From an uncultured Candidatus Saccharibacteria bacterium (lineage in GTDB: Bacteria; Patescibacteriota; Minisyncoccia; Phycocordibacterales; UBA9973), in NCBI GenBank assembly GCA_964348725.1, contig CAYGDG010000004.1, positions 2,133 through 66,132 of the forward strand: a stretch of 64,000 bases of DNA, in the 5' to 3' direction. The notes below the pieces were generated by a model. That model saw nothing but the letters and a program-made list of their open reading frames with translations. It did not search any database and was not told where the DNA came from. Each line of letters begins with the position of its first letter. Positions within the stretch are counted from its first letter, which is position 1. Shown piece after piece: positions 6,627-64,000 of the stretch. The position numbers and the translations under genes were made by a program.

Positions 6627-6754
6627 ATGTCCTCACTTTCGCATCTGGGTTCGCCTTTGTCAATATAAAAACTTTATCTTTTCTTTATGTGGGGTGTGTA
6701 TACTGCCGGTGGCGCGAATTGCGCTATTTATTATTTTGCCTAATTACAAGTTAT

Positions 6755-7417
6755 ATGGAAAAAAGTATACACAAAATTACAATCGGTATTCGCTATCGGC
6801 GTTCTTTTAGGATACCTGACATCTCAGGAAAAGTTATAGATTATATCTTGCACGATGATAAATCACCATTTCGTGAAAATTTCTTTCAAGAAGTTGGTGA
6901 AACTTCTGAAAAAGGTAAGATACTTGTAAGTGAAAAGAAAGATTTCTTGTCTATTGATATAGATAGCTTAATTTTAAGTTTAAATACAAATAATTTGGAG
7001 TCAGCCTTAACAAAAATCAAAGACTCATATTTTCCTTATTTTACAGATTCTATCTTTAAAGAATTTGAAATTGAAAATATAAATAGATTAGGTATTATTT
7101 TTGAACACAGGTTAGAAAAACTTGATTCAATAGATAAAATGACTAAAGAGCTTTCCTTAAATGAAATTTCTGCACCTGATAACTTTGAATTAAGATTTTC
7201 AAAAAAATTACCTACAACAGCTGGATTGATTTCAAAAAATATAGTTGACTTTTATAACACCATTTTTACCTATCAGAAGAATTCTAAAGGTATAGATATT
7301 AAGTTAGACTATCAACTATATTTTTCCCCAGAGATTGGTAGTATACAAGATGTTGAATTTAATAAATTTATTGATTCAGCAAAAAGTTATTTATTAGGTA
7401 AATTCTATAAATGGTAA
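6755..7417 (+). CDS. hypothetical cytoplasmic protein, first gene of an AT-rich three-gene operon
   Basis: Internal ATG at 6755 is preferred over the track start at 6689. About 30% GC against about 50% in flanking sequence. No TM segment. No recognizable domain. Confidence 0.45.
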   Translation: MEKSIHKITIGIRYRRSFRIPDISGKVIDYILHDDKSPFRENFFQEVGETSEKGKILVSEKKDFLSIDIDSLILSLNTNNLESALTKIKDSYFPYFTDSIFKEFEIENINRLGIIFEHRLEKLDSIDKMTKELSLNEISAPDNFELRFSKKLPTTAGLISKNIVDFYNTIFTYQKNSKGIDIKLDYQLYFSPEIGSIQDVEFNKFIDSAKSYLLGKFYKW

Positions 7418-7418
7418 A

Positions 7419-7949
7419 ATGGCAAAGAGAAACTACCATCTATCACGATTTCATCATACAGGTAAATCTAAGATAGAGAAAAATGATTATGTTGAATTAA
7501 TTAATGCTCCTCAAGAAAAAATCAATGATACTATTGAAGACAGCAGTGATGTATTTTCAGGCTCAGATATAACCGATTCTGGAAAAGGAACAATCTTAAA
7601 GAGTCGTAAAATTATAAAAGAAGATGTTGTAGAGCAGAGCAAAGCACAAAAATCTAAACCTTATGTATCTTTAGGTACAAAATTAAGTAAAAATATTAGA
7701 AAAATAATCTGGGATGGAATTATTGTTGCGATACTCATCACTGCTGTTGGAGTAGTATGGGGCCAGCAAAAAGATTTAGGGAAGATTTTAGCTAATATTG
7801 ATGCCATAAAAGATGATATTACTAAACTTCAAAATAAATATGACGATAACACAGGGTATATTGATAATGTAAAGATAATTACACAGATACAATCAGATTT
7901 GGCTTTTTTAAAGGAAAGGTTAATCAAAGTAGAGTTAAAAGTAGAATAA
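7419..7949 (+). CDS. hypothetical single-pass membrane protein with C-terminal coiled coil
   Basis: Start lies 1 nt after the upstream stop, so translation is coupled. TM segment IIWDGIIVAILITAVGVVWG. Heptad-like C-terminus. AT-rich. Confidence 0.45.
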   Translation: MAKRNYHLSRFHHTGKSKIEKNDYVELINAPQEKINDTIEDSSDVFSGSDITDSGKGTILKSRKIIKEDVVEQSKAQKSKPYVSLGTKLSKNIRKIIWDGIIVAILITAVGVVWGQQKDLGKILANIDAIKDDITKLQNKYDDNTGYIDNVKIITQIQSDLAFLKERLIKVELKVE

Positions 7950-7986
7950 TATTGTATCAATATATTCAAAATGCTAATATCAATAT

Positions 7987-8658
7987 ATGAGAATTAAAAA
8001 ATTAGTATCAAATATTGTTTTCATTAAAAGACCTGAAACAGAAAATAAATGGTGGCATCGTCTATCCCAGGTACTTGTTTTTGGCTCAGGTATTATTGTA
8101 TTTATAATTTCAATCTTATTTTCCTTAGATTATTTAGGTAATCATAGATATGTTGCTTATCATCCAACAGCATTTAGTCTAGAGCCAAACTATGAACGAG
8201 CCAAGGGAAAAGAATTCCGGTGTGAAGAAACCCTGAATTTTTCAGGGGAAGAGCGTTTCATAATTAAATGTGAAGGCATTGCAATTTCACCCGAAGCTTC
8301 AAAGAGATATCAAATACTCTACAATGTTGCTGATAAAGATTTAGAGAAGCAATTTGGTTTAGATAAATATGATGCTACTCATTGCTCTAATAGTGAAAAA
8401 TTTACAACTGAAGCAATGGATTGTATATGGCAAGCTGTAGAGGATAAGCAGGCAGATGCTGCGTATGATGAATATCTAGAGGCACAAAAAAATATCGCGC
8501 GCATTAAAGTTGTCAAAGATATTCACTATAAATACATACTAAGTGATGTCTGTATGTTTTTATTAGTTCCAATTGTTTCTTTTATTGCTTGGATTTTATT
8601 GTGGAATTCAGTTATTTATAGAGTGATTCTTTATATAATTTACGGAAAGAAAAAATAA
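7987..8658 (+). CDS. hypothetical two-TM membrane protein
   Basis: N-terminal TM (VLVFGSGIIVFIISILFSL) and C-terminal TM (VCMFLLVPIVSFIAWILLW). AT-rich. Followed by a strong terminator. Confidence 0.45.
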   Translation: MRIKKLVSNIVFIKRPETENKWWHRLSQVLVFGSGIIVFIISILFSLDYLGNHRYVAYHPTAFSLEPNYERAKGKEFRCEETLNFSGEERFIIKCEGIAISPEASKRYQILYNVADKDLEKQFGLDKYDATHCSNSEKFTTEAMDCIWQAVEDKQADAAYDEYLEAQKNIARIKVVKDIHYKYILSDVCMFLLVPIVSFIAWILLWNSVIYRVILYIIYGKKK

Positions 8659-10827: not shown

Positions 10828-10837
10828 TTTCTGCATT

Positions 10838-10873
10838 CACCCTCTCCTTAATAAGGAGAGGGCAGGGTGAGGT
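10838..10873 (+). repeat. palindromic element copy A (CACCCTCTCCTTAATAAGGAGAGGGCAGGGTGAGGTG), intergenic, 10 nt upstream of the msrB ATG
   Basis: A 10-bp perfect inverted repeat (CCCTCTCCTT / AAGGAGAGGG) with a 3-nt loop, followed by CAGGGTGAGGT. Near-identical to copy B at 61264..61298. Confidence 0.8.
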
Positions 10874-17133: not shown

Positions 17134-17139
17134 TTATTT

Positions 17140-17171
17140 GTAACATTTTCTGCGATAGCAGAGATTGTTAC
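17140..17171 (+). promoter_or_regulatory. 32-nt palindrome copy 1 (GTAACATTTTCTGCGATAGCAGAGATTGTTAC): putative operator and/or terminator
   Basis: Outer inverted repeat GTAACA/TGTTAC plus inner CTGCGATAGCAG. Identical to copy 2. Followed by a T-run. Confidence 0.5.
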
Positions 17172-17296
17172 ATTTAGATATTTTTTATTACTTTTTTATC
17201 AAATATTTAAGAAGGTTTTTTATAATCCCTTCAAATCAGTTATGAGGTAGCCGAAAATCACAAAAAGAGTAGGCATACAAATTTAATATTTTAGCT

Positions 17297-17980
17297 ATGA
17301 AAAAAGTTTTGTTCTTTGTAATTATTTTGGCTATTGCTCCGCCTCTGTCTGCGCAAGTGCACATAGAGGCTCTGGATTTTCCGACAGCTATGACAGTGCC
17401 CGGAGAGAATCAGATGTTTGCTCGGTATCAGATCGCGTCCGATTCAAATTCGGCATATCTGTATATGGATACCTGCAATATGCTTTTCTACGATTTCGGG
17501 AATTTCTCGGGGATGTCCCTGCGGAATGTCAGGCTGTTCGTAGACGGCGAGGAAAGATTGATGCAGATGACGATGCCCGGTGATTTCTGGCAATTTTATC
17601 CGAGCATATTGCTCGGTTTTCCGTATGGCTTTGCGGACACGGCGCAGATTCATTTTCTGGCTGATCTGCCGGACACGCTCGGTGATGACTTCATCCCCTC
17701 CGTAGGCGATTCGCTGTATGCGAGTATCCATTGCAGCTGTCATTATGTTACAGGCACCGGCTCTTTTGCCACCAATGAAGCCATCAGCCAGACTGTCTTC
17801 GTGACGTCTTCCTCCGTCGGAATTGCGCAACCTTCGCCGCAAAATTTCTCCGAGCGCCAAAATGCTCGCTTCTTTGATATCTTAGGCAGAGAAATCAGCC
17901 GAAGCAATCTGGAAAATCTCCCGCCCGGCGTGTACATCTGGCGGAGTGACCGCTTGGCAGGGAAAATCCTCGTGCGGTAA
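17297..17980 (+). CDS. secreted protein with a T9SS (Por)-type C-terminal sorting-domain-like tail
   Basis: Signal peptide MKKVLFFVIILAIAPPLSAQ. The C-terminus FFDILGREISRSNLENLPPGVYIWRSDRLAGKILVR resembles the Por_Secre_tail consensus (..D..GR.V......LP.GVYI......GK..K.LV). Confidence 0.5.
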   Translation: MKKVLFFVIILAIAPPLSAQVHIEALDFPTAMTVPGENQMFARYQIASDSNSAYLYMDTCNMLFYDFGNFSGMSLRNVRLFVDGEERLMQMTMPGDFWQFYPSILLGFPYGFADTAQIHFLADLPDTLGDDFIPSVGDSLYASIHCSCHYVTGTGSFATNEAISQTVFVTSSSVGIAQPSPQNFSERQNARFFDILGREISRSNLENLPPGVYIWRSDRLAGKILVR

Positions 17981-18034
17981 AAATTACTCGCGAGAAAAGC
18001 CATCGGGAACGGTGGCTTTCTTTTTACCAAGAAT

Positions 18035-18066
18035 GTAACATTTTCTGCGATAGCAGAGATTGTTAC
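18035..18066 (+). promoter_or_regulatory. 32-nt palindrome copy 2, immediately upstream of a TATAAT and the PaaX-like gene
   Basis: Identical to copy 1. Followed by ATCTAATCACACCTATAATAATATG, so it overlaps the likely promoter of 18089..18571. Confidence 0.5.
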
Positions 18067-18088
18067 ATCTAATCACACCTATAATAAT

Positions 18089-18571
18089 ATGAGCATAGTT
18101 AACGAAATTTTGCAGCAGTTAAATAAACAGGCATTTAATTACAAAGGCGCGCGCGTCAGTTTCTTTGGTATTCCAGAATTTAAAAAATATCGCACGGGCT
18201 CAGTCCGGGCGACTTTCTCTCGCTTGCTTGCCGATGGGCTCGTAGAAGATTGCGGTGACTTGCGCATCACAGTGAAAGGAAAAGAATATATAAAAAGAAA
18301 AATTGATTCACTGAAGCAGTTTGATTTCCGATTTGCCAAAGACGCGCCGAAGAATCTGATGGTAATGTTTGATGTGCCTGAGACGAAGAAGGCGGAGAGG
18401 GAATGGCTGCGCTGGCAGCTAAAAAAATTCAGTTACTTGATGATTCAAAAGAGTGTGTGGGTCGGCCCGTCGCCCTTGCCAAAGGAATTTATGGAGTATG
18501 TGGAAGAAATCGGTCTGAAAGACAGCCTAAAGACCTTTAAACTGGCGAAAGGGTATGACTTTAAAAAATAG
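18089..18571 (+). CDS. PaaX-like small transcriptional regulator (N-terminal winged HTH plus Cas2-like ferredoxin-fold domain)
   Basis: The N-terminus GSVRATFSRLLADGLVEDCGDLRITVKGKEYIKRK is wHTH-like. The middle NLMVMFDVPETKKAEREWLRWQLKKFSYLMIQKSVWVGPSP matches the PaaX/Cas2 pattern (PaaX: KWLLLLSEGLDKSTLADVKKQLIWQGFGALAPSLMASPS; Cas2: LVVV...R.RL...L...G..VQ.SV). Confidence 0.4.
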   Translation: MSIVNEILQQLNKQAFNYKGARVSFFGIPEFKKYRTGSVRATFSRLLADGLVEDCGDLRITVKGKEYIKRKIDSLKQFDFRFAKDAPKNLMVMFDVPETKKAEREWLRWQLKKFSYLMIQKSVWVGPSPLPKEFMEYVEEIGLKDSLKTFKLAKGYDFKK

Positions 18572-18578
18572 AAAATAA

Positions 18579-18610
18579 GTTACATTTCCTGCTATCGCAG
18601 AGTTTGTAAC
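18579..18610 (+). promoter_or_regulatory. 32-nt palindrome copy 3 (GTTACATTTCCTGCTATCGCAGAGTTTGTAAC), just after the PaaX-like stop codon
   Basis: Same architecture as copies 1 and 2, with the core reverse-complemented. Followed by TTTTAT. Confidence 0.5.
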
Positions 18611-18783
18611 TTTTATAAATATTTCGGCGCGTTGTCCAGCCAGCCCAAAATAAAGCCCAGAGCGAGGAAGATGACAAGCAGAACGGCGAGGATTATGTAG
18701 GTTTTTCGCATATCTTAATTATATAAGATAATAACCAAAATAAAAACAGGAAGCTTGTAATTACAAGCTTCCTGTTCATTTTT

Positions 18784-20368: not shown

Positions 20369-20968
20369 ATGCAACTTACACACAGTGACAGAGAAAAAAT
20401 CGCTCGTCAATATGATAAATCTTTATTAATTCCTAGTCATAATCTGACACATAGGTTTATTCTTGCTCCTGTTGGTTTGGTTGGTTCTGGTAAAAGCACA
20501 GTTGTTAAGCCGCTTTCAGAAAAATTTTCTCTTGTACGAATTTCCTCTGATGAAATAAGAGAAATTTTAAAAAAATTATCTTGTGACTATACACAGGAAG
20601 ATGTTTTATATATTGACATATTGTTGCTCCGTAAATATTTGAAAAGCGGATACGGAGTTGTTTTTGACAGTGATTGTGAAAACAAGGTATCAATCATAAA
20701 GGAGTTGGAAAAAGAATTTGATGTCCCAGTAATCTGGATAAATATTAATCCACCGGAAGAATTCATACTAAACAAGTTGCAACATATGAGCTATGAAAAA
20801 GGTCATGTTTTCAAAAATGCACAACAGGCTATCGCCACTTACTTTAAAGACAAACCGATTCATAGAAATTTGAGTATGCCATTTATTTCTACGATTGATA
20901 CTTCAAAAGAAAACCTCAACGGTCAGATTTACGAAACGAGCGAAAAGATAAGTAAGAGCTTGATATAA
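20369..20968 (+). CDS. P-loop NTPase, predicted small-molecule/nucleotide kinase (AAA_33 / zeta-toxin-like fold)
   Basis: Walker A LAPVGLVGSGKSTV. Walker B-like VVFDSD. 199 aa. About 33% GC, which is compositionally atypical. Confidence 0.45.
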   Translation: MQLTHSDREKIARQYDKSLLIPSHNLTHRFILAPVGLVGSGKSTVVKPLSEKFSLVRISSDEIREILKKLSCDYTQEDVLYIDILLLRKYLKSGYGVVFDSDCENKVSIIKELEKEFDVPVIWININPPEEFILNKLQHMSYEKGHVFKNAQQAIATYFKDKPIHRNLSMPFISTIDTSKENLNGQIYETSEKISKSLI

Positions 20969-21722: not shown

Positions 21723-22325
21723 ATGAAAAATAAAAATTTAAAAATTATAATTTCCGTACTATTTCTTTTGGCGATAGGAGTTGCTATGTTTTTTTTGATT
21801 AACAAAAAAGACAATGCTATTTATGGGGACTCTATATTACCAATAGCAGAGCAAAAAGATTATTTAAAAAAACTCACTAGACTTTGGAATAATTATATAA
21901 AAAACCCAAACGAAGAAACCGCACAAGAATTGCTTGTATTTTTACCAGACACGAATAATCATATATATTCACCAGATGTTCCAGATTATGAATCGCTTAA
22001 GAAAGCGATAAACAATGATTATCCTAGAGTTCTAGAAATTATCTTTGAATTTCAGCGTAATTCAACAGGAGTTGATAAGGAATTTTTGAATATTCAAGCA
22101 GGATATTACTTGGAAGTTAATCCTAAAAACTTCTTAGAGATAGCTTCTAAAACTAAAGATTTTAGGGTAACTGATTATGATTGGACATTAGATTCAGATG
22201 AATTAACTAAAGAACATACCTCAAAAATGATTAATGCTTTAGAAAATGTTAAAGATAATAATTTTATAAATCTACGGGACAAACTTATTAAAGAATTTAA
22301 ATATAGTTTAAGTAGATATAATTAA
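21723..22325 (+). CDS. hypothetical membrane-anchored protein inserted between pheS and pheT
   Basis: N-terminal TM segment (IIISVLFLLAIGVAMFFLI). AT-rich, about 30% GC. No recognizable domain. Confidence 0.4.
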   Translation: MKNKNLKIIISVLFLLAIGVAMFFLINKKDNAIYGDSILPIAEQKDYLKKLTRLWNNYIKNPNEETAQELLVFLPDTNNHIYSPDVPDYESLKKAINNDYPRVLEIIFEFQRNSTGVDKEFLNIQAGYYLEVNPKNFLEIASKTKDFRVTDYDWTLDSDELTKEHTSKMINALENVKDNNFINLRDKLIKEFKYSLSRYN

Positions 22326-26715: not shown

Positions 26716-27666
26716 ATGAAAACTTTAGGCTTTCTTTTGCTGATTGTGCTTTGTCTTTTAGCATATTCAGTACTCGCGCAGAATCCAAATCTCGTGCCGA
26801 ATCCGAGTTTTGAATTTTATGATTCGCTTCCAAATGATGATTCTCAAATCGGTCGCGCGACCGGATGGAATGCCTGCTCAAACACCCCTGATTATTTTCA
26901 CGGCGCTTCGCCGAGCGGAAATGTCAGCATCCCGCAAAATTATTTCGGCACCGTGGAGCTTTCAGGGAATGAAGAGGTAGGGTGTGCCGGTTTTTATGCC
27001 AAGCATCCTTCGCATTATTGCGAAGTCGTAGGCAGAAAGCTTGCCAGCCCGCTCATATCAGGTGTGACATACTATGTATCTTTTTATGTGAGCAGGGCGG
27101 AAAAGATATCTAATTGCGGAGTTGATCACATTGGCGTTCTTTTTACCGATTATTTCTTCGGGGATACGGTGCACGGATGTGTTATCGTAGATAATCCGCC
27201 GCAAGTGCAGGATTTTGCCCACGTTTATTCCGAAGAGATAATCATTGATACTTTGGAATGGACGAAGATAAGTGGCTCGTTTACCCCAAGGGAAATATAC
27301 CGATTTATCTATATCGGTAATTTCTTCCATGTCCCAAATATGGAAATTGTTTCGGAGCCGCAGGATACTTGTATTGCATATTATTATCTTGATAATGTAT
27401 GCGTCTCAACTGATCCGGAAGTGTGCGGTGTAGTGGCGAGTGTGCAAAAACGAGAAGCTGCAAAGCATCCGCCGCTCTGGCCGAATCCATTTCAGGACAA
27501 TCTGTATATCCGTGATGCGGGTGTACCGGCGACATTATGTTCCGTTTTAGGGCAAGAACTCCGGCACTGGGAAGTAATTCCTAGTGAAATTGACTTCTCG
27601 GATTTTGAAAGAGGAGTGTATTTCTTGAAAACTGAAAAAGAAGTTTTCAAACTGATCAAACAATAA
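26716..27666 (+). CDS. secreted protein with a T9SS (Por)-type C-terminal sorting-domain-like tail
   Basis: Signal peptide MKTLGFLLLIVLCLLAYSVLAQ. The C-terminus LWPNPFQDNLYIRD ... LCSVLGQELRHWEV ... IDFSDFERGVYFLKTEKEVFKLIKQ matches the Por_Secre_tail pattern (YPNP......I......I.D..G..V......iD.S.L..GVYF.K........KLIK). Confidence 0.55.
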   Translation: MKTLGFLLLIVLCLLAYSVLAQNPNLVPNPSFEFYDSLPNDDSQIGRATGWNACSNTPDYFHGASPSGNVSIPQNYFGTVELSGNEEVGCAGFYAKHPSHYCEVVGRKLASPLISGVTYYVSFYVSRAEKISNCGVDHIGVLFTDYFFGDTVHGCVIVDNPPQVQDFAHVYSEEIIIDTLEWTKISGSFTPREIYRFIYIGNFFHVPNMEIVSEPQDTCIAYYYLDNVCVSTDPEVCGVVASVQKREAAKHPPLWPNPFQDNLYIRDAGVPATLCSVLGQELRHWEVIPSEIDFSDFERGVYFLKTEKEVFKLIKQ

Positions 27667-35994: not shown

Positions 35995-37952
35995 GCTAGT
36001 TCGTAATCAATTATTTTGCGCTCCAAATCTGCCTTTTTTACTTTTATTTTTACGCTGTCGCCCAGGCGATAGCGCTTTTTCTTTTTCTTGCCGACGAGCT
36101 CCAGTTTTTTCTCGTCAAAGATATAAAAATCGTCCGATATGTCGCGGGCGCGTACCATGCCTTCGCACTTTGTCTCAATTTCTTCCACGTATATGCCCCA
36201 CTCGGTGACGCCGGAGATGATGCCTTTAAATGTCTCCCCAATACGGTGCGACATGTATTCCGTCTGCTTGTATTTGATGGATGCGCGTTCAGCGTCAGAT
36301 GCGCGCTTTTCCTGGTCGGAACTTTTGCGGGACATCATCTCATACTCGCTCAATTTTTCTTTCGGCACTTTCTTGCCGGCAAGGTATTCCATAAGCAGGC
36401 GGTGCACCATCACGTCCGGATAGCGGCGGATAGGGGAAGTAAAGTGCGTGTAGTGCTCAAAAGCGAGGCCGTAGTGCCCGATATTTTTTGTGGAGTATAT
36501 CGCTTTTGCCATAGAGCGGATGACCGCGCGATGCACGGCGTCCTTTTCGGGCTTGCCGGCGAGCGAGGCGAGGAGTTTATTTATTTCAAATGGGGGAATG
36601 ACGCCGTTCAGTAATTTTACTTTGTATCCGAGGCCGTTTAGGAAGAGCGCAAGGTCGTGCATTTTTTCTTTTTCCGGCGCGTCATGAATGCGGTACACGA
36701 AGACGCCTTCGCCTTTCTTCATTCCTTTGCCAATGCGTTCGGCTACTTTACGATTCGCGAGGAGCATGAGCTCTTCTATCAATTTATTTGAATCTCCGCG
36801 CACTTTTTTTATGACTTTGAGCGGCACGCCTTTTTCATCCAGCACGAATTTTACTTCTTCCTGGTCCAAAGACACTGCGCCTTTCCGGAAGCGCTCAGCG
36901 GTGAGCTTTTTGGCGATGCCGTTTATGATGGCGAGTTCCGCGTGTAATTCACCATTCTTATCCGTGATAGATTTCTCCGCGTCTTCATAGCTGAAACGCT
37001 TTGCGGAGTGGATGACGGTGCGGCCGAACCATTCATCCAGTACCTGACCTTCTGTGTTCATGTGGAATACGGCGCTCATGGTCAGGCGGTCCTGGCCGGG
37101 CACGAGGGAGCAGAGATCATTTGAAAGTACTTCGGGGAGCATGGGTATCGTCCTGTCTACCAAATATACAGAAGTCGCCCGCTCGCGCGCTTCCTGATCC
37201 AGCTCGCTGCCGGGACGCACGTAATACGATACGTCTGCGATGTGGATGCCGATTTCGTACACCTCACCCCCTGACCCCCTCTCCTTAGTAAGGAGAGGGG
37301 GAAGAATGCGGAAAGAAATCGCGTCATCAAAATCTTTCGCATCTGCCGGGTCAATAGTGAAGGTGAGTATGTTTCTGAAATCGCGGCGGCCTTCGTAATC
37401 TTTTTCAGAAATGCCGAGCCGGCTGATGGCCTGCGCTTCATCTTCCGTACCTCTTGGCAGATCTGGCGCAAAGCCGCGCTCAATGGCGATGGCATTCATC
37501 TCGGCGGAATTTTCGCCCGGCTTGCCGAGCACGCGCATGACTTTTCCTTCAGGCGCTTTGCGCGCATCTTTCCACGACGCTATCTCTACGTACGCTTTTT
37601 CGCCGGCTTTGGCGCCGCCCAGGTTCGCCGGGGGGATCAAGATGTCCGTATACATCTTTGTATCATCTGGCTTCAAAAAAAACACGCCGTTCTCTTCTTC
37701 AATCACGCCGGAAAAACCACGCTTGGCGCGGGATATGATTTCCACCACTTCGCCCGTCTGCCGCACACCTTTCTTTTGCGGGAATAAGGCCACGAGCACG
37801 GTATCGCCGTGCAGGCCGGTGTGCAGATGCAGGGATTCTATTTCCACATCTTCTTCATCTTTCTTTTTTTTCGGTTCCAATGTGCGCAGGTAGCCTACGC
37901 CTTTACCGGAAACAGACAGTATGCCTTCAAGGCGGTTAGATTGTGTATCCAT
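35991..37952 (-). CDS. rnr: ribonuclease R (RNB-family 3'-5' exoribonuclease) carrying an in-frame palindromic-element insertion
   Basis: Cold-shock-like N-terminal domains. RNB motifs FTIDPADAKDFDDAISF and HFTSPIRRYPDVMVHRLL. C-terminal S1 domain and a K-rich tail. Confidence 0.85.
   Translation of the reverse strand: MDTQSNRLEGILSVSGKGVGYLRTLEPKKKKDEEDVEIESLHLHTGLHGDTVLVALFPQKKGVRQTGEVVEIISRAKRGFSGVIEEENGVFFLKPDDTKMYTDILIPPANLGGAKAGEKAYVEIASWKDARKAPEGKVMRVLGKPGENSAEMNAIAIERGFAPDLPRGTEDEAQAISRLGISEKDYEGRRDFRNILTFTIDPADAKDFDDAISFRILPPLLTKERGSGGEVYEIGIHIADVSYYVRPGSELDQEARERATSVYLVDRTIPMLPEVLSNDLCSLVPGQDRLTMSAVFHMNTEGQVLDEWFGRTVIHSAKRFSYEDAEKSITDKNGELHAELAIINGIAKKLTAERFRKGAVSLDQEEVKFVLDEKGVPLKVIKKVRGDSNKLIEELMLLANRKVAERIGKGMKKGEGVFVYRIHDAPEKEKMHDLALFLNGLGYKVKLLNGVIPPFEINKLLASLAGKPEKDAVHRAVIRSMAKAIYSTKNIGHYGLAFEHYTHFTSPIRRYPDVMVHRLLMEYLAGKKVPKEKLSEYEMMSRKSSDQEKRASDAERASIKYKQTEYMSHRIGETFKGIISGVTEWGIYVEEIETKCEGMVRARDISDDFYIFDEKKLELVGKKKKKRYRLGDSVKIKVKKADLERKIIDYELA
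37261..37300 (-). repeat. palindromic element copy C, in-frame inside rnr (encodes PPLLTKERGSGGEV)
   Basis: The sense strand reads CCCCCTCTCCTTACTAAGGAGAGGGGGTCAGGGGGTGAGG. Same family as copies A and B, with substitutions that remove in-frame stop codons. Confidence 0.7.
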
Positions 37953-39999: not shown

Positions 40000-40374
40000 A
40001 TGAAAACTCTCATCTCCGTATGCGCAATGCTTCTGATTAGCTTCGGGTTATATGCCCAAGCATATCATCTGGAAACAGATGTATTTGATCCGTATCTTTC
40101 TTCTTCAGATACATTATGCGCTACACTTCGTTTTGATGACTGTGGCCGTCTGTCTTTAAAATTTTTAAGCACAACAGATGCGATGCGGATAGAAATTATA
40201 GATTATGAGCCGGATGATGATATATCAAGCTGGAAAGTGATGGATCTTTGCCGCTACAGGCTCACTTCGCGGTGGTATTGTGATACATCTTGGCACAATC
40301 CACTTGATTCGGCACAGTTCTCCTATCTCTTAGGAGAAACAGTGGCACGGCTTCGATATGAACACAAGAAGTGA
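40000..40374 (+). CDS. secreted hypothetical protein
   Basis: Signal peptide MKTLISVCAMLLISFGLYAQA. 124 aa. Confidence 0.4.
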   Translation: MKTLISVCAMLLISFGLYAQAYHLETDVFDPYLSSSDTLCATLRFDDCGRLSLKFLSTTDAMRIEIIDYEPDDDISSWKVMDLCRYRLTSRWYCDTSWHNPLDSAQFSYLLGETVARLRYEHKK

Positions 40375-40470
40375 CTTATAAATATGAAAGCGGGACTCAT
40401 CAGAGGCCCGTTTTTTTGATTTTAAAGCTGATTCGTGTTATTCTACAAAAAACTCTAAACCCTACGCACC

Positions 40471-41262
40471 ATGAAAAAAATAAATAAACTTACAGCACTC
40501 ATCGTGCTATCGCTCGCGCTTGCCGTGCCGGACCTCTATGCGCAAAAGACCCACATTCCCGAGCTTCTCGCGCAATGCGTGATGGCCGGGAGTGAAGTGC
40601 CGGAAGACGTGAAACTCCGTGCCCAAGACCTGATGAAAAAGACTGCCGATTCAGTCCTTCGGGACAGCGTCACCGCTCTGGTGCTCCGAAAAGCAGAAAA
40701 GAACATTATTAAAGTTAAAATTATCACAACAGGAAAGAATATCGATTATTTTCTTTCCCACGATTCTGCAACGACCGAGATACAGTACACACTTTATCTC
40801 CGCTCGGCTTCCGTGCGTAAAGTGGTGAAAGATGGTCAGACTGTCAATAAGTACACTTCCAGCTTGCTTGCCAGCGAAGTGAATTATTTAGATAGAAGAT
40901 ACGGCGTAAGCAGGATGTATATGAGCCGATGTATGAATCCCGGAGGCGGGCAGCATGAACAGAGTGGTTCAAGAAAGGATATCGAGTTTTTTGCTGACTG
41001 TATGGCGAATCTAATTGTGATGAGCGCCGCAGTTCCGCTCTCCCTTTCAAATTGTTTGGCGGTAGAGCTGGAAGACAGCACCAGTAGAAATCTTTTTATT
41101 CAGTATATCTGCCGACGGGGGATAGAAATTTCTAATACTGACGATGGCATGCATATCGCTGTCACTCGCTATGCGCCGGACGGCAAAGAATTACAATACG
41201 ATATACGTCTGAATGGGCAGAACTTGTCTCCCATTGCCGTACGTCATAATCCGCAAGAATGA
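40471..41262 (+). CDS. secreted hypothetical protein
   Basis: Signal peptide MKKINKLTALIVLSLALAVPDLYAQ. 263 aa. Confidence 0.4.
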   Translation: MKKINKLTALIVLSLALAVPDLYAQKTHIPELLAQCVMAGSEVPEDVKLRAQDLMKKTADSVLRDSVTALVLRKAEKNIIKVKIITTGKNIDYFLSHDSATTEIQYTLYLRSASVRKVVKDGQTVNKYTSSLLASEVNYLDRRYGVSRMYMSRCMNPGGGQHEQSGSRKDIEFFADCMANLIVMSAAVPLSLSNCLAVELEDSTSRNLFIQYICRRGIEISNTDDGMHIAVTRYAPDGKELQYDIRLNGQNLSPIAVRHNPQE

Positions 41263-60498: not shown

Positions 60499-61276
60499 AA
60501 AGAATCGGCAGAAAAAATATCGCACCATTGCGATAGGCGTTTTCATTTTGCTCGTCGCCATATATTTCCGTGCGGAAATTTACAATGGCTTTTCGCGTGT
60601 TCTCGGCGCGGTGGCAAAACCATTTCTCTCGTTCGGCCGAAATGTGGGCGGCGGCATTTCCGGCACTGGCGCGGCTTTTGCTTCCAAAAAATCTTTGCGT
60701 GCGGAAAATGAAAATCTAGAGGCACAGCTCGCCGAAATGCAGGGCAGGATGGGGAACTATGATATTCTGGCCGCCGAAAATGAAAACTTGAAAGAAATAT
60801 TGGCGAGAAAAAAAACTCCCGGCACATTGCTCCTCGCCGCCATCCTCGCACATCCGAACCGCTCTTTATACGATACTGTACTTATAGACGCGGGCGAAGC
60901 TGAAGGGGTGAAAGCAGGCGACAGGGTATTCGCGGAAGGCGATATACCGCTCGGCACAGTGGCGGAAGTCATGCCGCACTCGGCAAAAGTGCTCTTGTAT
61001 TCAAATCCCGGCGAGAAGACCGAAGCCATCCTCGGCGAAGGGCATGTCACCCTCACCGGCCGCGGCAGGGGAAATTTTGAGATGATTCTGCCGCGTGATT
61101 ATGTATTGGAGCCAGGCACTGCCGCGCATCTGCCCGGTATATATCCGTATGTCATTGCCCGCACGGCCACGGTCATTTCCGACCCGCGGGATTCGTTTCA
61201 GAAAGCGTTACTGATCAGCCCGGTGAATATTAATCACCTCAAATTTGTGGAGGTGGAGGTTTCACCCTCTCCTTAA
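60479..61276 (+). CDS. mreC: rod shape-determining protein MreC
   Basis: N-terminal TM segment. Coiled coil ENENLEAQLAEMQ ... ENENLKEIL. Beta-rich C-terminal domain. The last 6 codons and the TAA stop lie inside palindromic element copy B. Overlaps mreB. Confidence 0.8.
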   Translation: MSYLLDKKNRQKKYRTIAIGVFILLVAIYFRAEIYNGFSRVLGAVAKPFLSFGRNVGGGISGTGAAFASKKSLRAENENLEAQLAEMQGRMGNYDILAAENENLKEILARKKTPGTLLLAAILAHPNRSLYDTVLIDAGEAEGVKAGDRVFAEGDIPLGTVAEVMPHSAKVLLYSNPGEKTEAILGEGHVTLTGRGRGNFEMILPRDYVLEPGTAAHLPGIYPYVIARTATVISDPRDSFQKALLISPVNINHLKFVEVEVSPSP

Positions 61277-61298
61277 TAAGGAGAGGGCAGGGTGAGGT
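61264..61298 (+). repeat. palindromic element copy B (CACCCTCTCCTTAATAAGGAGAGGGCAGGGTGAGGT), between mreC and tgt
   Basis: Identical over about 35 nt to copy A. It supplies the mreC stop codon and a GGTGAGGT motif 5 nt upstream of the tgt ATG. Confidence 0.8.
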
Positions 61299-63081: not shown

Positions 63082-64000
63082 ATGGGGTTTAAACTCAAAA
63101 CTGAATTTCAGCCTGCGGGCGACCAGCCGAAGGCTATAGAGGGGCTGGTGAGCGGGCTCAAAAAGGGTATGCGGAAGCAGACATTGCTGGGTGTGACGGG
63201 TTCGGGCAAGACTTTTACGATGGCGAATGTCATACAGCAGATGCAAAAGCCGACGCTGGTGATAGCGCATAACAAGACCCTGGCCGCCCAGCTGGCGCAG
63301 GAGTTCAAGGAATTTTTTCCGGAAAATGCCGTGCATTATTTTGTTTCTTATTACGATTATTACCAGCCGGAAGCGTACTTGCCGACGACGGACACATACA
63401 TAGAAAAAGACGCGCAAATAAATAAAGAGATTGATCGGCTTCGTCATGCGAGTACGCAGGCACTTTTGTCCAGAAAAGATGTGATAATAGTTGCCTCAGT
63501 GTCCTGCATTTACGGCTTGGGAAGTCCGGAAGAATATAAGGAAGAAAATATGTCCCTCGCCGTGGGCGATGCCGCCGGGCGCTCGGAGATAATGAAGCGC
63601 CTTATCGGTATGCATTTCTCGCGCACGAATGCGGACCTGACGCCGGGAACTTTCCGCGCGATGGGGCAAAAGGTAGAACTGATGCCGATTTCGGAGACTT
63701 TTACATATAGTATTGAATTTTCCCCCTCTCCTTTACAAGGAGAGGGCGGGGGTGAGGTTCTTCGCATTTTAAAAATAGACGCCGTGTCATCCAAAGTCCT
63801 CGGTGAAGAGCAGAATATTTTTATTTTTCCGGCGAAGCACTTCATCACGAACAAAGCGAAGCTTCAGCAGGCGATAAAAAATATCAAAGAAGAACTGAAA
63901 GCCCAGCTGAAGAAATTTGATAAGGAAGGAAAAATTTTGGAAGCCGAGCGGCTGAAGCGCCGCACGAATTATGATCTGGCGATGCTGCGCGAAGTGGGCT
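63082..64000 (+). CDS. uvrB: excinuclease ABC subunit B (5' part; continues beyond window)
   Basis: MGFKLKTEFQPAGDQPKAIEGLVSGL ... QTLLGVTGSGKTFTMANVI ... YFVSYYDYYQPEAY ... ASVSCIYGLGSPEEY. Confidence 0.9.
   Translation, partial: MGFKLKTEFQPAGDQPKAIEGLVSGLKKGMRKQTLLGVTGSGKTFTMANVIQQMQKPTLVIAHNKTLAAQLAQEFKEFFPENAVHYFVSYYDYYQPEAYLPTTDTYIEKDAQINKEIDRLRHASTQALLSRKDVIIVASVSCIYGLGSPEEYKEENMSLAVGDAAGRSEIMKRLIGMHFSRTNADLTPGTFRAMGQKVELMPISETFTYSIEFSPSPLQGEGGGEVLRILKIDAVSSKVLGEEQNIFIFPAKHFITNKAKLQQAIKNIKEELKAQLKKFDKEGKILEAERLKRRTNYDLAMLREVG
63722..63758 (+). repeat. palindromic element copy D in-frame inside uvrB (encodes SPSPLQGEGGGEV)
   Basis: CCCCCTCTCCTTTACAAGGAGAGGGCGGGGGTGAGGT. Same family. 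The stop-creating positions are altered (TTTACAA loop, GGCGGGGG). Confidence 0.7.

Follow-up and report, generated by a model that had tools for sequence, protein, structure and literature searches.

A T9SS Type A CTD-Like Remnant on a Secreted Protein of a Paceibacteria-Type Genome and Its Probable Origin in an Old Transfer from Bacteroidota

Introduction

CPR bacteria are thought to have neither an outer membrane nor a T9SS, and we found no report of T9SS CTDs in CPR in the published literature. The question raised by the present locus is how a secreted protein encoded in such a genome came to end in a tail that resembles a T9SS type A CTD, and what the tail can do there. The gene, hereafter the target, occupies positions 17297-17980 of the forward strand of the window, i.e., of the whole 64-kb stretch of DNA that was analysed. 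The first-pass annotation, made by reading the letters only, had proposed a T9SS-type sorting tail, a Patescibacteria-like window, and, as possibilities, an acquisition of the gene from Bacteroidota or a repurposing of the CTD fold; the open reading frame, the signal peptide, and the letters of the tail are in the sequence as it described them. The explanation that we regard as rather probable is an old transfer from Bacteroidota to CPR, after which the CTD was kept for its fold or for binding and did not serve as a T9SS signal.

Results and Discussion

The Target Protein

The ORF encodes 227 aa, starting with MKKVLFFVIILAIAPPLSAQ, a typical Sec signal peptide by its sequence, and ending in ...FFDILGREISRSNLENLPPGVYIWRSDRLAGKILVR. 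It can be divided into the following parts.

17297..17353, forward strand: signal peptide, aa 1-19 (MKKVLFFVIILAIAPPLSA), with n, h, and c regions in the sequence and predicted cleavage before Gln20
17354..17797, forward strand: mature N-terminal all-β domain, aa 20-167, from the AF2 model
17798..17866, forward strand: linker and degenerate CTD strands β1-β2, aa 168-190, from alignments A1, A2, and A3
17867..17977, forward strand: putative retained part of a T9SS type A CTD, aa 191-227, from the PDB profile match and hhalign

The predicted cleavage leaves a Gln at the +1 position, which is the Q-rule of SPase I substrates, a feature specific to Bacteroidetes (PMC5837995, PMC10653852). The junction is kept across the target family, with LSA/Q in the target and NA/Q, IA/Q, and FG/Q in the homologues, where the slash marks cleavage sites assigned by eye; an automated tally of the +1 residues misplaced these sites and was left out of the results. 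No glutaminyl cyclase is present among the Pfam-annotated ORFs of the window.

The mature N-terminal domain is all β in the AF2 model, with a pLDDT of about 66-83 over most of its length, and 23 of its 153 alignment columns are invariant in the family. The full-length model has a pLDDT of 62 and returns only generic β-sandwich matches in Foldseek (TM ≤ 0.33). The family itself consists of four members, the window protein and three relatives, found in a search of 1.84 billion representative proteins. The same collection contains no Bacteroidota homologue of the mature N-domain, and the three relatives do not allow a donor lineage to be named. When 5.8 billion proteins were searched by a word index, the target as query recovered nothing but itself and the tail profile recovered nothing, while a scan of GTDB genomes and a tblastn search of 50,697 phage records with the target gave no match. 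Among the Pfam and NCBIfam models, none matches the window protein even at E ≤ 10.

Relationship of the Tail to T9SS CTDs

The T9SS CTD is a seven-stranded Ig-like β-sandwich (3+4), the Gly of L-β3-β4 and the Lys of β7 constitute its recognition motifs, and an intact fold is needed for secretion (PMC11285876). The window protein alone matches neither PF18962 nor TIGR04183 at E ≤ 10, and the best member of the family, P0007, reaches 19.9 bits against TIGR04183 (E 5e-4), below the cutoff of 23. The first-pass annotation had called for this HMM search and had named the lack of a significant hit as grounds for rejecting the CTD assignment, which for the single sequence is formally the outcome. The negative result is overruled only by the evidence from the family profile and the structure models, which confirms the assignment at the level of the family.

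A profile built from the four tails matches the RgpB CTD in the PDB (5HFS, 7PQ4, 5AG8, and 5AG9) with E-values of 9.7e-6 to 1.5e-4, the top four matches out of 177,635 sequences all being T9SS CTDs. When the profile is aligned by hhalign to 82 independent genuine PF18962 CTDs, the score is 27.7 (P 1e-5), at a probability of only 82-87%. The same comparison after 200 column shuffles gives a mean of 8.6 with an sd of 1.6 and a maximum of 13.9, the real score lying about 12 sd above, and the controls give 8.2 for the reversed profile, 8.7 for OmpA, and 18.3 for the type B CTD. The alignment to the RgpB CTD is collinear and anchored at the C-terminus, and both the hhalign and the PDB profile alignments run to the last residue in query and CTDs alike. 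Homology to genuine CTDs is thus seen at the profile level, for a segment that forms the very C-terminal end of a protein exported with a Sec signal peptide, as is also the case for the archetype, RgpB of Porphyromonas gingivalis.

The AF2 model of the tail of homologue P0006 alone (72 residues) has seven strands and a pLDDT of 74, and its top three Foldseek matches among 350,542 PDB chains are the RgpB CTD (7PQ4), a chain of the T9SS translocon (8GL8_D), and PorZ (5M11). The corresponding E-values are weak (0.05-0.2), and the structural support therefore lies in the ranking. Six residues of the tail (D194, G197, G211, Y213, K223, and V226) do not vary among the four members. The invariant residues coincide with the L-β3-β4 Gly and the β7 Lys, and D194, G197, K223, and V226 are aligned to the FDMNGRR and KVIVK segments of RgpB. 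The two loops are alike (FDILGRE in the target), both tails have G.Y in β6 and Lys/Val in β7, and the long members of the family are predicted to form the same seven-stranded sandwich. As judged from these profiles and models, the relationship of the tail is specifically to type A CTDs of the T9SS.

The window protein, however, differs from such a CTD in several respects. Relative to P0006 and P0007 it has a 10-column deletion within aa 168-190, an indel-prone part of the family alignment, and about 10-17 residues covering β1-β2 are absent or degenerate; these strands are lost in two of the four members. Residues 154-186 have an AF2 pLDDT below 50. The segment aa 191-227 comprises β3, β4, a short β5, β6, and β7, with FFDILGRE at L-β3-β4 and GKILVR at the C-terminus, and in the AF2 model the tail has just four strands (pLDDT 57-69), leaving at most one sheet of the sandwich. 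It also scores under the curated cutoffs and has no PNP motif. By alignment and model, the tail of the window protein is consequently best described as a remnant (β3-β7) and not as a full CTD. This remnant appears to be maintained, since conservation in β3-β7 equals that in the N-domain (0.33 versus 0.38 in mean pairwise identity and 14% versus 15% in invariant columns).

The LPXTG/sortase signals of monoderms offer a further comparison, since they too are C-terminal elements of Sec-exported proteins in cells that have no outer membrane. The target tail, in contrast, has no LPXTG-like motif, no hydrophobic membrane span, and no basic stop-transfer end, and it appears to be a β-strand domain instead of an anchor peptide.

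Genome Identity and Neighbourhood

The RpoB of the window is 64-88% identical to that of Nomurabacteria, Paceibacterota, and Parcubacteria MAGs, which bears out the earlier impression of a Patescibacteria-like window and identifies it, on sequence grounds, as Paceibacteria-type Patescibacteria (CPR). The position of the target is syntenic in three independent assemblies. At the homologous locus L082 the helicase is 53% identical to that of the window and a PaaX_M gene is present, while at L083 the identities are 77% for UPF0176, 69% for pheS, and 56% for pheT; these two genomes have 33-38% GC. The GC3 of the target (0.583) is close to that of rpoB, gyrB, and rpoC (0.59-0.61).

The target is surrounded by short repeats and is followed by a PaaX-like gene:

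17139..17173, forward strand: 35-nt palindromic element, copy 1 (TGTAACA-N20-TGTTACA, inner stem CTGC-GATA-GCAG)
18034..18068, forward strand: 35-nt palindromic element, copy 2, an exact repeat of 17139-17173
18089..18571, forward strand: protein with a PaaX_M / Cas2-like domain, 160 aa (PF20803 at 3.6e-14)
18578..18615, forward strand: palindromic element, copy 3, 79% identical, with compensatory stem changes and an inverted loop

Copy 1 lies 6 nt past the stop codon of the helicase-nuclease gene and about 125 nt 5' of the target start, and copy 2 overlaps a promoter-like site of the PaaX-like gene (TTGTTA-17-AATAAT). An exact repeat of 35 nt is expected zero times by chance. We considered the two flanking copies both as borders of a cassette or attachment site and as a signature of mis-assembly, and rejected both assignments in view of the third, diverged copy after the next gene and of the long, lineage-specific palindromes found in the corresponding spacer of L082 and of L083. 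PaaX_M genes adjoin the target homologues in L082 and L083 as well, so that this family neighbours the target family in three genomes; the PaaX-like protein may have a regulatory role.

No component of the T9SS machinery (PorK/L/M/N, SprA/Sov, PorV, PorU) is found among the scanned ORFs of the window, in contrast to the organisms in which type A CTDs are at home, and the rest of the genome presumably lacks it too. T9SS organisms carry tens of CTDs per genome, according to the TIGR04183 description; in related CPR DNA, by contrast, tails of this kind are very rare. No further CTD-like ORF was found in about 770 kb of Paceibacteria DNA, which implies that the CTD is not a general sorting tag in CPR.

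The DUF805b Leader

The region upstream of the target contains an RNA motif, and the gene is followed by a terminator-like element:

17221..17226, forward strand: TATAAT hexamer, -10-like, 14 nt 5' of the DUF805b motif, from sequence inspection
17241..17275, forward strand: DUF805b RNA motif (Rfam RF02914, clan CL00115), located in the target's 5' leader, from the covariance model
17996..18025, forward strand: intrinsic-terminator-like hairpin and T-run, 10-bp stem with 5 GC pairs, 16 nt after the stop codon

The DUF805b motif is matched over its full length (model 1-35 of 35) with 41.4 bits, above the gathering score of 35.6 (E 2.4e-8 in the window), and of its four stem pairs one is non-canonical. 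Shuffled sequences give an MFE fold as good as that of the leader (z 0.05); the evidence for the RNA is the covariance model and the covariation across loci. A consensus promoter scan did not call the hexamer as a full promoter; transcription may start just before the motif, and the gene looks monocistronic.

The core of the motif is about 22-23 nt from the ATG of the target, i.e., at the same spacing as elsewhere, the distance being 19-29 nt in 60 of 77 DUF805b loci from metagenomes. The ten proteins sampled at such loci include SusC/RagA (3), SusD (1), and a T9SS CTD protein (1), and the sampled loci are largely from Bacteroidota, whereas the present copy is in a CPR genome. We found no published account of the distribution of DUF805b. 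The Bacteroidota -7 element TAnnTTTG does not occur at a fixed place 5' of the motif in 78 loci, and the promoter element thus gives no taxonomic information. DUF805b is absent 5' of the three homologues, whose loci were searched; it would accordingly have been lost three times, acquired later, or be functional in the lineage of the window only.

A Second CTD Gene in the Window

Another secreted protein with a CTD is encoded between gyrB and thrS:

26716..27666, forward strand: signal-peptide protein of 316 aa with a CTD at aa 254-316

It scores 23.2 bits against PF18962 (GA 27, E 8.5e-5) and 18.8 bits against TIGR04183 (model 2-72 of 72), below the cutoff in both cases. It has 123 homologues, most with PF18962, and those with a named source are all from Bacteroidia, Flavobacteriales, or Bacteroidota. 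Over its full length the protein is homologous to a family of Bacteroidota T9SS cargo proteins of about 320 aa (P0010, P0012, P0017), with members named, for example, [quoted passage not shown]. Its presence within a CPR window demonstrates the transfer of cargo genes from Bacteroidota to CPR. Its signal peptide ends in VLA/Q (by eye), and its GC3 is 0.42, compared with 0.59 for core genes; the target being ameliorated and syntenic, this gene is probably the younger arrival. The target resembles the cargo family in being small and secreted and in having an A/Q signal peptide and a type A CTD-like tail, but its mature domain is unrelated, and the tail HMMs do not cross-detect. In L087, an ORF that lies beside P0010 likewise encodes 227 aa and is unrelated to the target. 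Two further ORFs with A/Q signal peptides are located at 40000-41262 and are absent from 80 related loci.

Taken with the DUF805b leader and the predicted Gln at +1, this second gene supports the horizontal acquisition from Bacteroidota that the first-pass annotation had put forward.

Alternative Explanations

The most direct alternative is that Bacteroidota DNA was mis-joined into a CPR contig, the circumstance under which the first-pass annotation would have been withdrawn. The exact repeats on both sides of the gene would be in line with this, as would the Logan assembly of run ERR3094292, which breaks exactly at them and leaves a 920-bp contig; a k-mer assembler is, however, expected to break at any repeat longer than its k-mer, and the third, diverged copy marks the repeats as a local genomic element and not as junction artefacts. 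Two further, independent assemblies show the same neighbourhood, the genes on either side being 53-77% identical to those of the window, and the codon composition of the target is that of core CPR genes. A chimera is effectively refuted, and we give it next to no weight. It is also quite unlikely that the tail is an unrelated small β-sheet whose D..G and G.Y...K..V pattern resembles that of the type A CTD by chance. Such convergence would account for the failure of every curated HMM at threshold, the limited hhalign probability, the Foldseek E-values above 0.05, and the missing PNP motif throughout the target family, but not for an hhalign score far above all the shuffles with low reversed, OmpA, and type B controls. 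Furthermore, T9SS CTDs make up all of the leading PDB matches, four by sequence and three by structure, with collinear and C-terminally anchored alignments in both kinds of search, and the same gene bears an independent Bacteroidota signature in DUF805b.

If the relationship is accepted, the tail might still be a working signal, by which some unrecognised CPR machinery (a PorU-like sortase, for example, or a different receptor for CTDs) attaches the protein to the cell surface. The invariant residues are those needed for T9SS recognition, the tail is conserved to the level of the N-domain, and two secreted proteins with CTDs occur within one 64-kb window. Against this, the annotated ORFs of the window include no T9SS-like gene, both CTDs fall under the curated cutoffs, comparable tails are otherwise missing from the Paceibacteria DNA searched where a T9SS organism would have tens, and two of the four members have lost β1-β2 although secretion requires the intact fold (PMC11285876). 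We therefore consider a working signal unlikely. Less likely again is mimicry of the host's own cargo tag, in which the CPR cell would be an epibiont of a Bacteroidota host and the half-CTD would serve as a ligand for surface-exposed or periplasmic T9SS components of that host (PorV/PorU/PorZ, of the shuttle or attachment complex), in adhesion or in interference with secretion. It would explain why the recognition motifs have been kept selectively and the second sheet of the sandwich has not, and the repeated gene flow from Bacteroidota (the target, ORF 26716, and the two A/Q ORFs at 40000-41262) implies physical proximity. Fold constraints at the β-turn and the terminal strand, however, explain the conserved residues equally well. 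Few hosts of Paceibacteria are known.

Proposed History of the Target

In the old-transfer explanation, the small target protein would be Sec-exported; it consists of a signal peptide, an all-β domain (about 150 aa), and, at its C-terminus, what is left of a type A CTD. A Bacteroidota donor most probably passed the gene, as one for T9SS cargo, to the ancestor of a narrow Paceibacteria clade. The Bacteroidota origin is suggested by the DUF805b leader, the A/Q signal peptide, and the clear Bacteroidota-derived CTD gene in the same window; the leader and the Bacteroidota-style signal peptide (Gln at +1) would have arrived together with the gene. The gene would then have been inherited vertically in a fixed position (helicase-nuclease / PaaX-like gene / X / UPF0176-pheS-pheT), its base composition shifting to that of the host. 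The direction of the transfer, and an old rather than a recent age, appear to be the most consistent with these features.

Since an outer membrane and a T9SS are both thought to be missing from CPR cells, the tail cannot act as a signal for translocation across, or attachment to, an outer membrane. After export through Sec the protein would be released or surface-exposed with the tail uncleaved, and the tail would be under selection as a small β-sheet module. The window protein would keep the β4-β3-β6-β7 sheet alone, which probably packs against the N-domain or serves in binding; such a structural or binding function is the present role that we propose for the tail.

Conclusions

T9SS CTDs are usually treated as a secretion signature of Bacteroidota and the FCB group. 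The present analysis indicates that the CTD can survive where the whole machinery is believed to be missing from the lineage, in a truncated form with the recognition motifs conserved, the tail being retained across genomes that are almost 20 GC points apart. An annotation that equates the CTD with T9SS cargo would mislabel such proteins. The DUF805b element, an "orphan" motif, behaves as a fixed-distance leader before very diverse Bacteroidota genes.

The gene flow from Bacteroidota to Paceibacteria, including a regulatory RNA, would be a rare clue to the partners of uncultured episymbionts. Should mimicry prove true, the repeated import of Bacteroidota-style secreted genes and of a leader RNA would suggest that the present Paceibacteria lineage has Bacteroidota for its host. 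In either case, the CTD remnant may be regarded as a natural experiment that separates the parts of the domain required for folding from those required for recognition.

Target Gene and Genomic Context

The secreted protein with a T9SS-like tail described in the first-pass annotation is encoded at 17297-17980, as stated there. The ORF (+ strand, 227 aa) carries a signal peptide, starts with MKKVLFFVIILAIAPPLSAQ, and ends with FFDILGREISRSNLENLPPGVYIWRSDRLAGKILVR. The Patescibacteria-like appearance of the window was likewise confirmed, because its RpoB (1063 aa) is 64-88% identical to those of Nomurabacteria, Paceibacterota, and Parcubacteria MAGs (GTDB representatives) and the other content is housekeeping (truB, pheST, gyrB, thrS, nusB, smc, rpoBC, dnaG, rpoD, and tgt). 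The features surrounding the target gene are:

17139-17173, 18034-18068, and 18578-18615: three copies of a palindrome of 35-38 nt
17221-17226: TATAAT in the promoter region of the target
17241-17275 (+): DUF805b RNA motif (RF02914), full model, 41.4 bits (gathering score 35.6)
17996-18025: intrinsic-terminator-like hairpin and T-run, 3′ of the target
18089-18571 (+): gene with a PaaX_M/Cas2-like domain, adjoining the target family in 3/3 syntenic genomes

The terminator-like hairpin makes the target look like a monocistronic unit. It would be transcribed from its own promoter region with a leader of ~60 nt that begins with DUF805b.

Elsewhere in the window, islands of very low GC3 (0.19-0.29, compared to 0.59 in core genes) are found at 6689-8658, 20369-20968, and 21723-22325. 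Their content is a set of unannotated ORFs (6689-8658), a kinase-like gene of the AAA_33 type, and, between pheS and pheT, an ORF for a membrane-anchored protein of 200 aa. They resemble DNA inserted recently from a source with low GC. The window also contains a family of REP-like or terminator-like elements, two of which (the first pair listed) are 100% identical at a distance of 50 kb:

10836-10873, 61261-61298, 37273-37310, and 63720-63757: 38-nt GC-rich hairpin repeats (…CCCTCTCCTTAATAAGGAGAGGG…)

Identity of the C-Terminal Tail

The HMM search proposed in the first-pass annotation fails when taken literally, as the target protein alone has no Pfam or NCBIfam match even at E ≤ 10. Three relatives, P0006, P0007, and P0008 (43%, 45%, and 31% identity, respectively), emerged from 1.84 billion cluster representatives searched exhaustively with phmmer, and 5.8 billion proteins, searched via a word index, gave no match other than the target itself. 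The target is thus nearly an orphan, and the profiles and models discussed below are shallow, being built on a family of four members. All four proteins keep the tail pattern [FI]xD..G[RQ]x[IV], followed by pGvY and a C-terminal GK[IV]xV, and P0007 matches TIGR04183 over model positions 21-71 with 19.9 bits (cutoff 23, E 5e-4).

When the profile of the four tails was compared to all PDB sequences, the top four matches were the CTD of RgpB from Porphyromonas gingivalis (5HFS with E 9.7e-6, 7PQ4, 5AG8, and 5AG9), in collinear alignments that reach the last residue of both partners; the fifth was 8GLK_D, a 75-residue chain, with E 0.12. For hhalign, the reference was a set of 82 C-termini (80 residues each) from proteins with a precomputed PF18962 domain; they are independent of the query because these proteins were chosen via N-terminal homology to a different protein of the window. 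The tail profile scored 27.7 against these CTDs (P 1e-5, probability 82-87%), compared to 8.6 ± 1.6 (maximum 13.9) for 200 column-shuffled profiles, 8.2 for the reversed profile, 8.7 for OmpA domains, and 18.3 for type B CTDs. An AlphaFold2 model of the tail alone, calculated for the long P0006 version with only the four family sequences as input, has seven strands and a pLDDT of 74. In a Foldseek comparison to 350,542 PDB chains, its top three matches were the RgpB CTD (7PQ4, probability 0.99, TMq 0.55), 8GL8_D from the translocon complex of SprA and PorV, and PorZ (5M11), with E-values that are weak (0.05-0.2) owing to the small size of the domain. Together, four independent tests (the P0007 match, the PDB profile, hhalign, and the structural comparison) support the proposed T9SS-like character of the tail, and we consider homology of the family tail to the type A CTD highly probable, despite the missed curated thresholds.

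The type A CTD is a 3+4 sandwich composed of the sheets β5-β2-β1 and β4-β3-β6-β7, recognized through the β3-β4 loop (F695-DMNGR-R701 in RgpB, with Gly699 being essential) and through the C-terminal strand with its conserved Lys (PMC11285876). The invariant tail residues of the CPR family (D194, G197, G211, Y213, K223, and V226) map to the β3-β4 loop (FFDILGRE), β6, and β7. Relative to P0006 and P0007, the tails of the target and P0008 have lost 10-17 residues over β1 and β2, and in the full-length model of the target, the tail is reduced to four strands (191-193, 199-202, 211-216, and 221-226), preceded by a disordered linker. According to this model, the surviving part would be essentially a four-stranded sheet with both recognition motifs. 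Conservation of the retained tail matches that of the N-terminal domain (0.33 vs 0.38 in pairwise identity, 14% vs 15% in invariant columns), and the tail is thus kept by selection rather than drifting. Homology places the tail in the type A CTD superfamily. Because its scores stay below the curated cutoffs, its fold is incomplete, and the organism probably lacks the cognate machinery, it is filed as a degenerate derivative of the CTD rather than as a functional member.

Residence in the CPR Clade

The contigs of the homologues have the same neighborhood as the window. L082 begins within the same helicase-nuclease gene (3′ end, 53% identity), which is followed by the PaaX_M gene and the target homologue, while L083 contains PaaX_M, the target homologue, a UPF0176-rhodanese gene (77%), pheS (69%), and pheT (56%). 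The GC content of the homologues' contigs is 33-38%, compared to ~50% in the core genes of the window, and the GC3 of the target (0.583) is at the level of rpoB, gyrB, and rpoC (0.59-0.61). The shared neighborhood and the core-like GC3 show that the gene is a long-term resident of this CPR clade, inherited vertically. A recent arrival and a chimeric insert are rejected on the same grounds, which contradict one of the two cases named in the first-pass annotation as refuting it, a chimera with Bacteroidota DNA. In an independent Logan assembly, the 920-bp contig breaks exactly at two 35-nt exact repeats flanking the target; we do not take this as a mis-join, as it is the ordinary behavior of a k-mer assembler at a repeat.

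Long palindromes with arms of 15-21 nt lie between the PaaX_M gene and the target family gene in the three genomes, with lineage-specific sequences and a GATA/TATC loop in the window and L082. In addition to the window copies, these are:

L082, 1393-1432: palindrome with arms of 18 nt
L083, 649-692: palindrome with arms of 21 nt

The PaaX-like protein may use the palindromes as operators. A role as terminators was rejected for L082 and L083, where no gene ends in that spacer; the window copies also sit right past three consecutive stop codons. The PaaX_M-like protein scores 24.2 bits against the Cas2 equivalog TIGR01573 (cutoff 24.5); the surroundings of 18089-18571 showed neither a CRISPR array nor further cas genes.

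Bacteroidota Signatures

Scanning metagenome contigs with the conserved core of DUF805b gave at least 120 stretches, and 80 loci were retrieved (L089-L168), across which the stem covaries. In the window, 23 nt separate the core from the start codon, and the spacing is 19-29 nt in 60 of 77 metagenome loci. The genes located 3′ of the motif are highly diverse, encoding double-glycine leader peptides, lipoproteins, proteins with A|Q signal peptides, and CTD proteins; proteins ending in DDLPF also occur among the products. A ligand-specific riboswitch accounts less well for this behavior than a leader with a general role in expression or translation. Among ten proteins, the largest sampled from ten motif-bearing loci, there are three SusC/RagA, one SusD-like, and one T9SS CTD protein, which points to a mainly Bacteroidota leader element. 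DUF805b was found neither in the three homologous loci (P0006-P0008) nor in 87 other loci examined.

Gln occupies position +1 of the predicted cleavage site, as read by eye, in the target, its homologues, and the window ORFs 26716, 40000, and 40471, and is absent from this position in the two other clear secreted ORFs (695 and 2720). Judging from these predicted sites, the Gln would represent the Bacteroidetes Q-rule, a feature reported as confined to this phylum (PMC5837995, PMC10653852). Two of these ORFs, both located in the trmD-rpoB interval and both with LYA|Q at the end of the signal peptide, have no family matches. In the related Paceibacteria loci examined, the spacer between trmD and rpoB contains no homologue of either ORF; they may be further Bacteroidota-style imports:

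40000-40374 (+): 124 aa, GC3 0.38
40471-41262 (+): 263 aa, GC3 0.50

The window holds a second CTD gene:

26716-27666 (+): secreted type A CTD protein (…LWPNPFQDNLYI…GVYFLKTEKEVFKLIKQ), between gyrB and thrS

It scores 23.2 bits against PF18962 (GA 27) and 18.8 bits against TIGR04183 (model positions 2-72 of 72), and is a full-length homologue (35-38% identity over ~95% of the length) of a family of >120 proteins. Most members carry PF18962, those with a named source are all from Bacteroidia, Flavobacteriales, or Bacteroidota, and the contigs of its closest relatives hold further CTD genes. Its GC3 of 0.42 is atypical for the window, and the gene is probably a direct example of the same kind of transfer, younger than that of the target. 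The leader, the Gln +1, and this second gene back the suggested horizontal acquisition from Bacteroidota.

Shine-Dalgarno sequences are near-absent from the window genes (start regions of 29 genes), whose leaders are A/T-rich; the 26716 gene, with AGGAGG, is one of the few exceptions. Their rarity is also common in Bacteroidota, and this shared trait should make the expression of imported genes easier. Large Peptidase_S74 (endosialidase chaperone) proteins lie near a target homologue on a CPR contig (L083, 7510-11079) and, on another contig, beside a 26716-family relative (L210, 2049-4844); these placements may be coincidental.

Fate of the Protein and Implications

In Bacteroidota, the CTD takes the cargo through SprA, with subsequent handover to PorV and PorU. 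CPR envelopes are not known to have such a route. No T9SS component was found among the scanned ORFs of the 64-kb window, the part of the genome covered by the analysis. The target product would be exported by Sec and cleaved before Gln20. With SprA, PorV, and PorU presumably lacking, it would be released or remain at the cell surface, keeping its uncleaved tail, which has shrunk to one sheet that probably packs on the N-terminal domain or a partner.

A general CPR sorting tag is rejected as an explanation of such tails, since the 26716 ORF is the sole match (E 1.7e-5) of an HMM of the 82 genuine PF18962 tails in ~770 kb of CPR DNA, apart from weak matches to the target family, which come next (E ~0.2). 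That the tail mimics the T9SS tag toward the host is quite improbable. In the literature searched, CTDs were not reported from Patescibacteria, although a report may exist elsewhere. The preferred reading, a degenerate CTD of Bacteroidota origin, is of interest as evidence of gene flow from Bacteroidota to CPR bacteria that includes a leader RNA, and the tails of the target family constitute a natural truncation series of the CTD.
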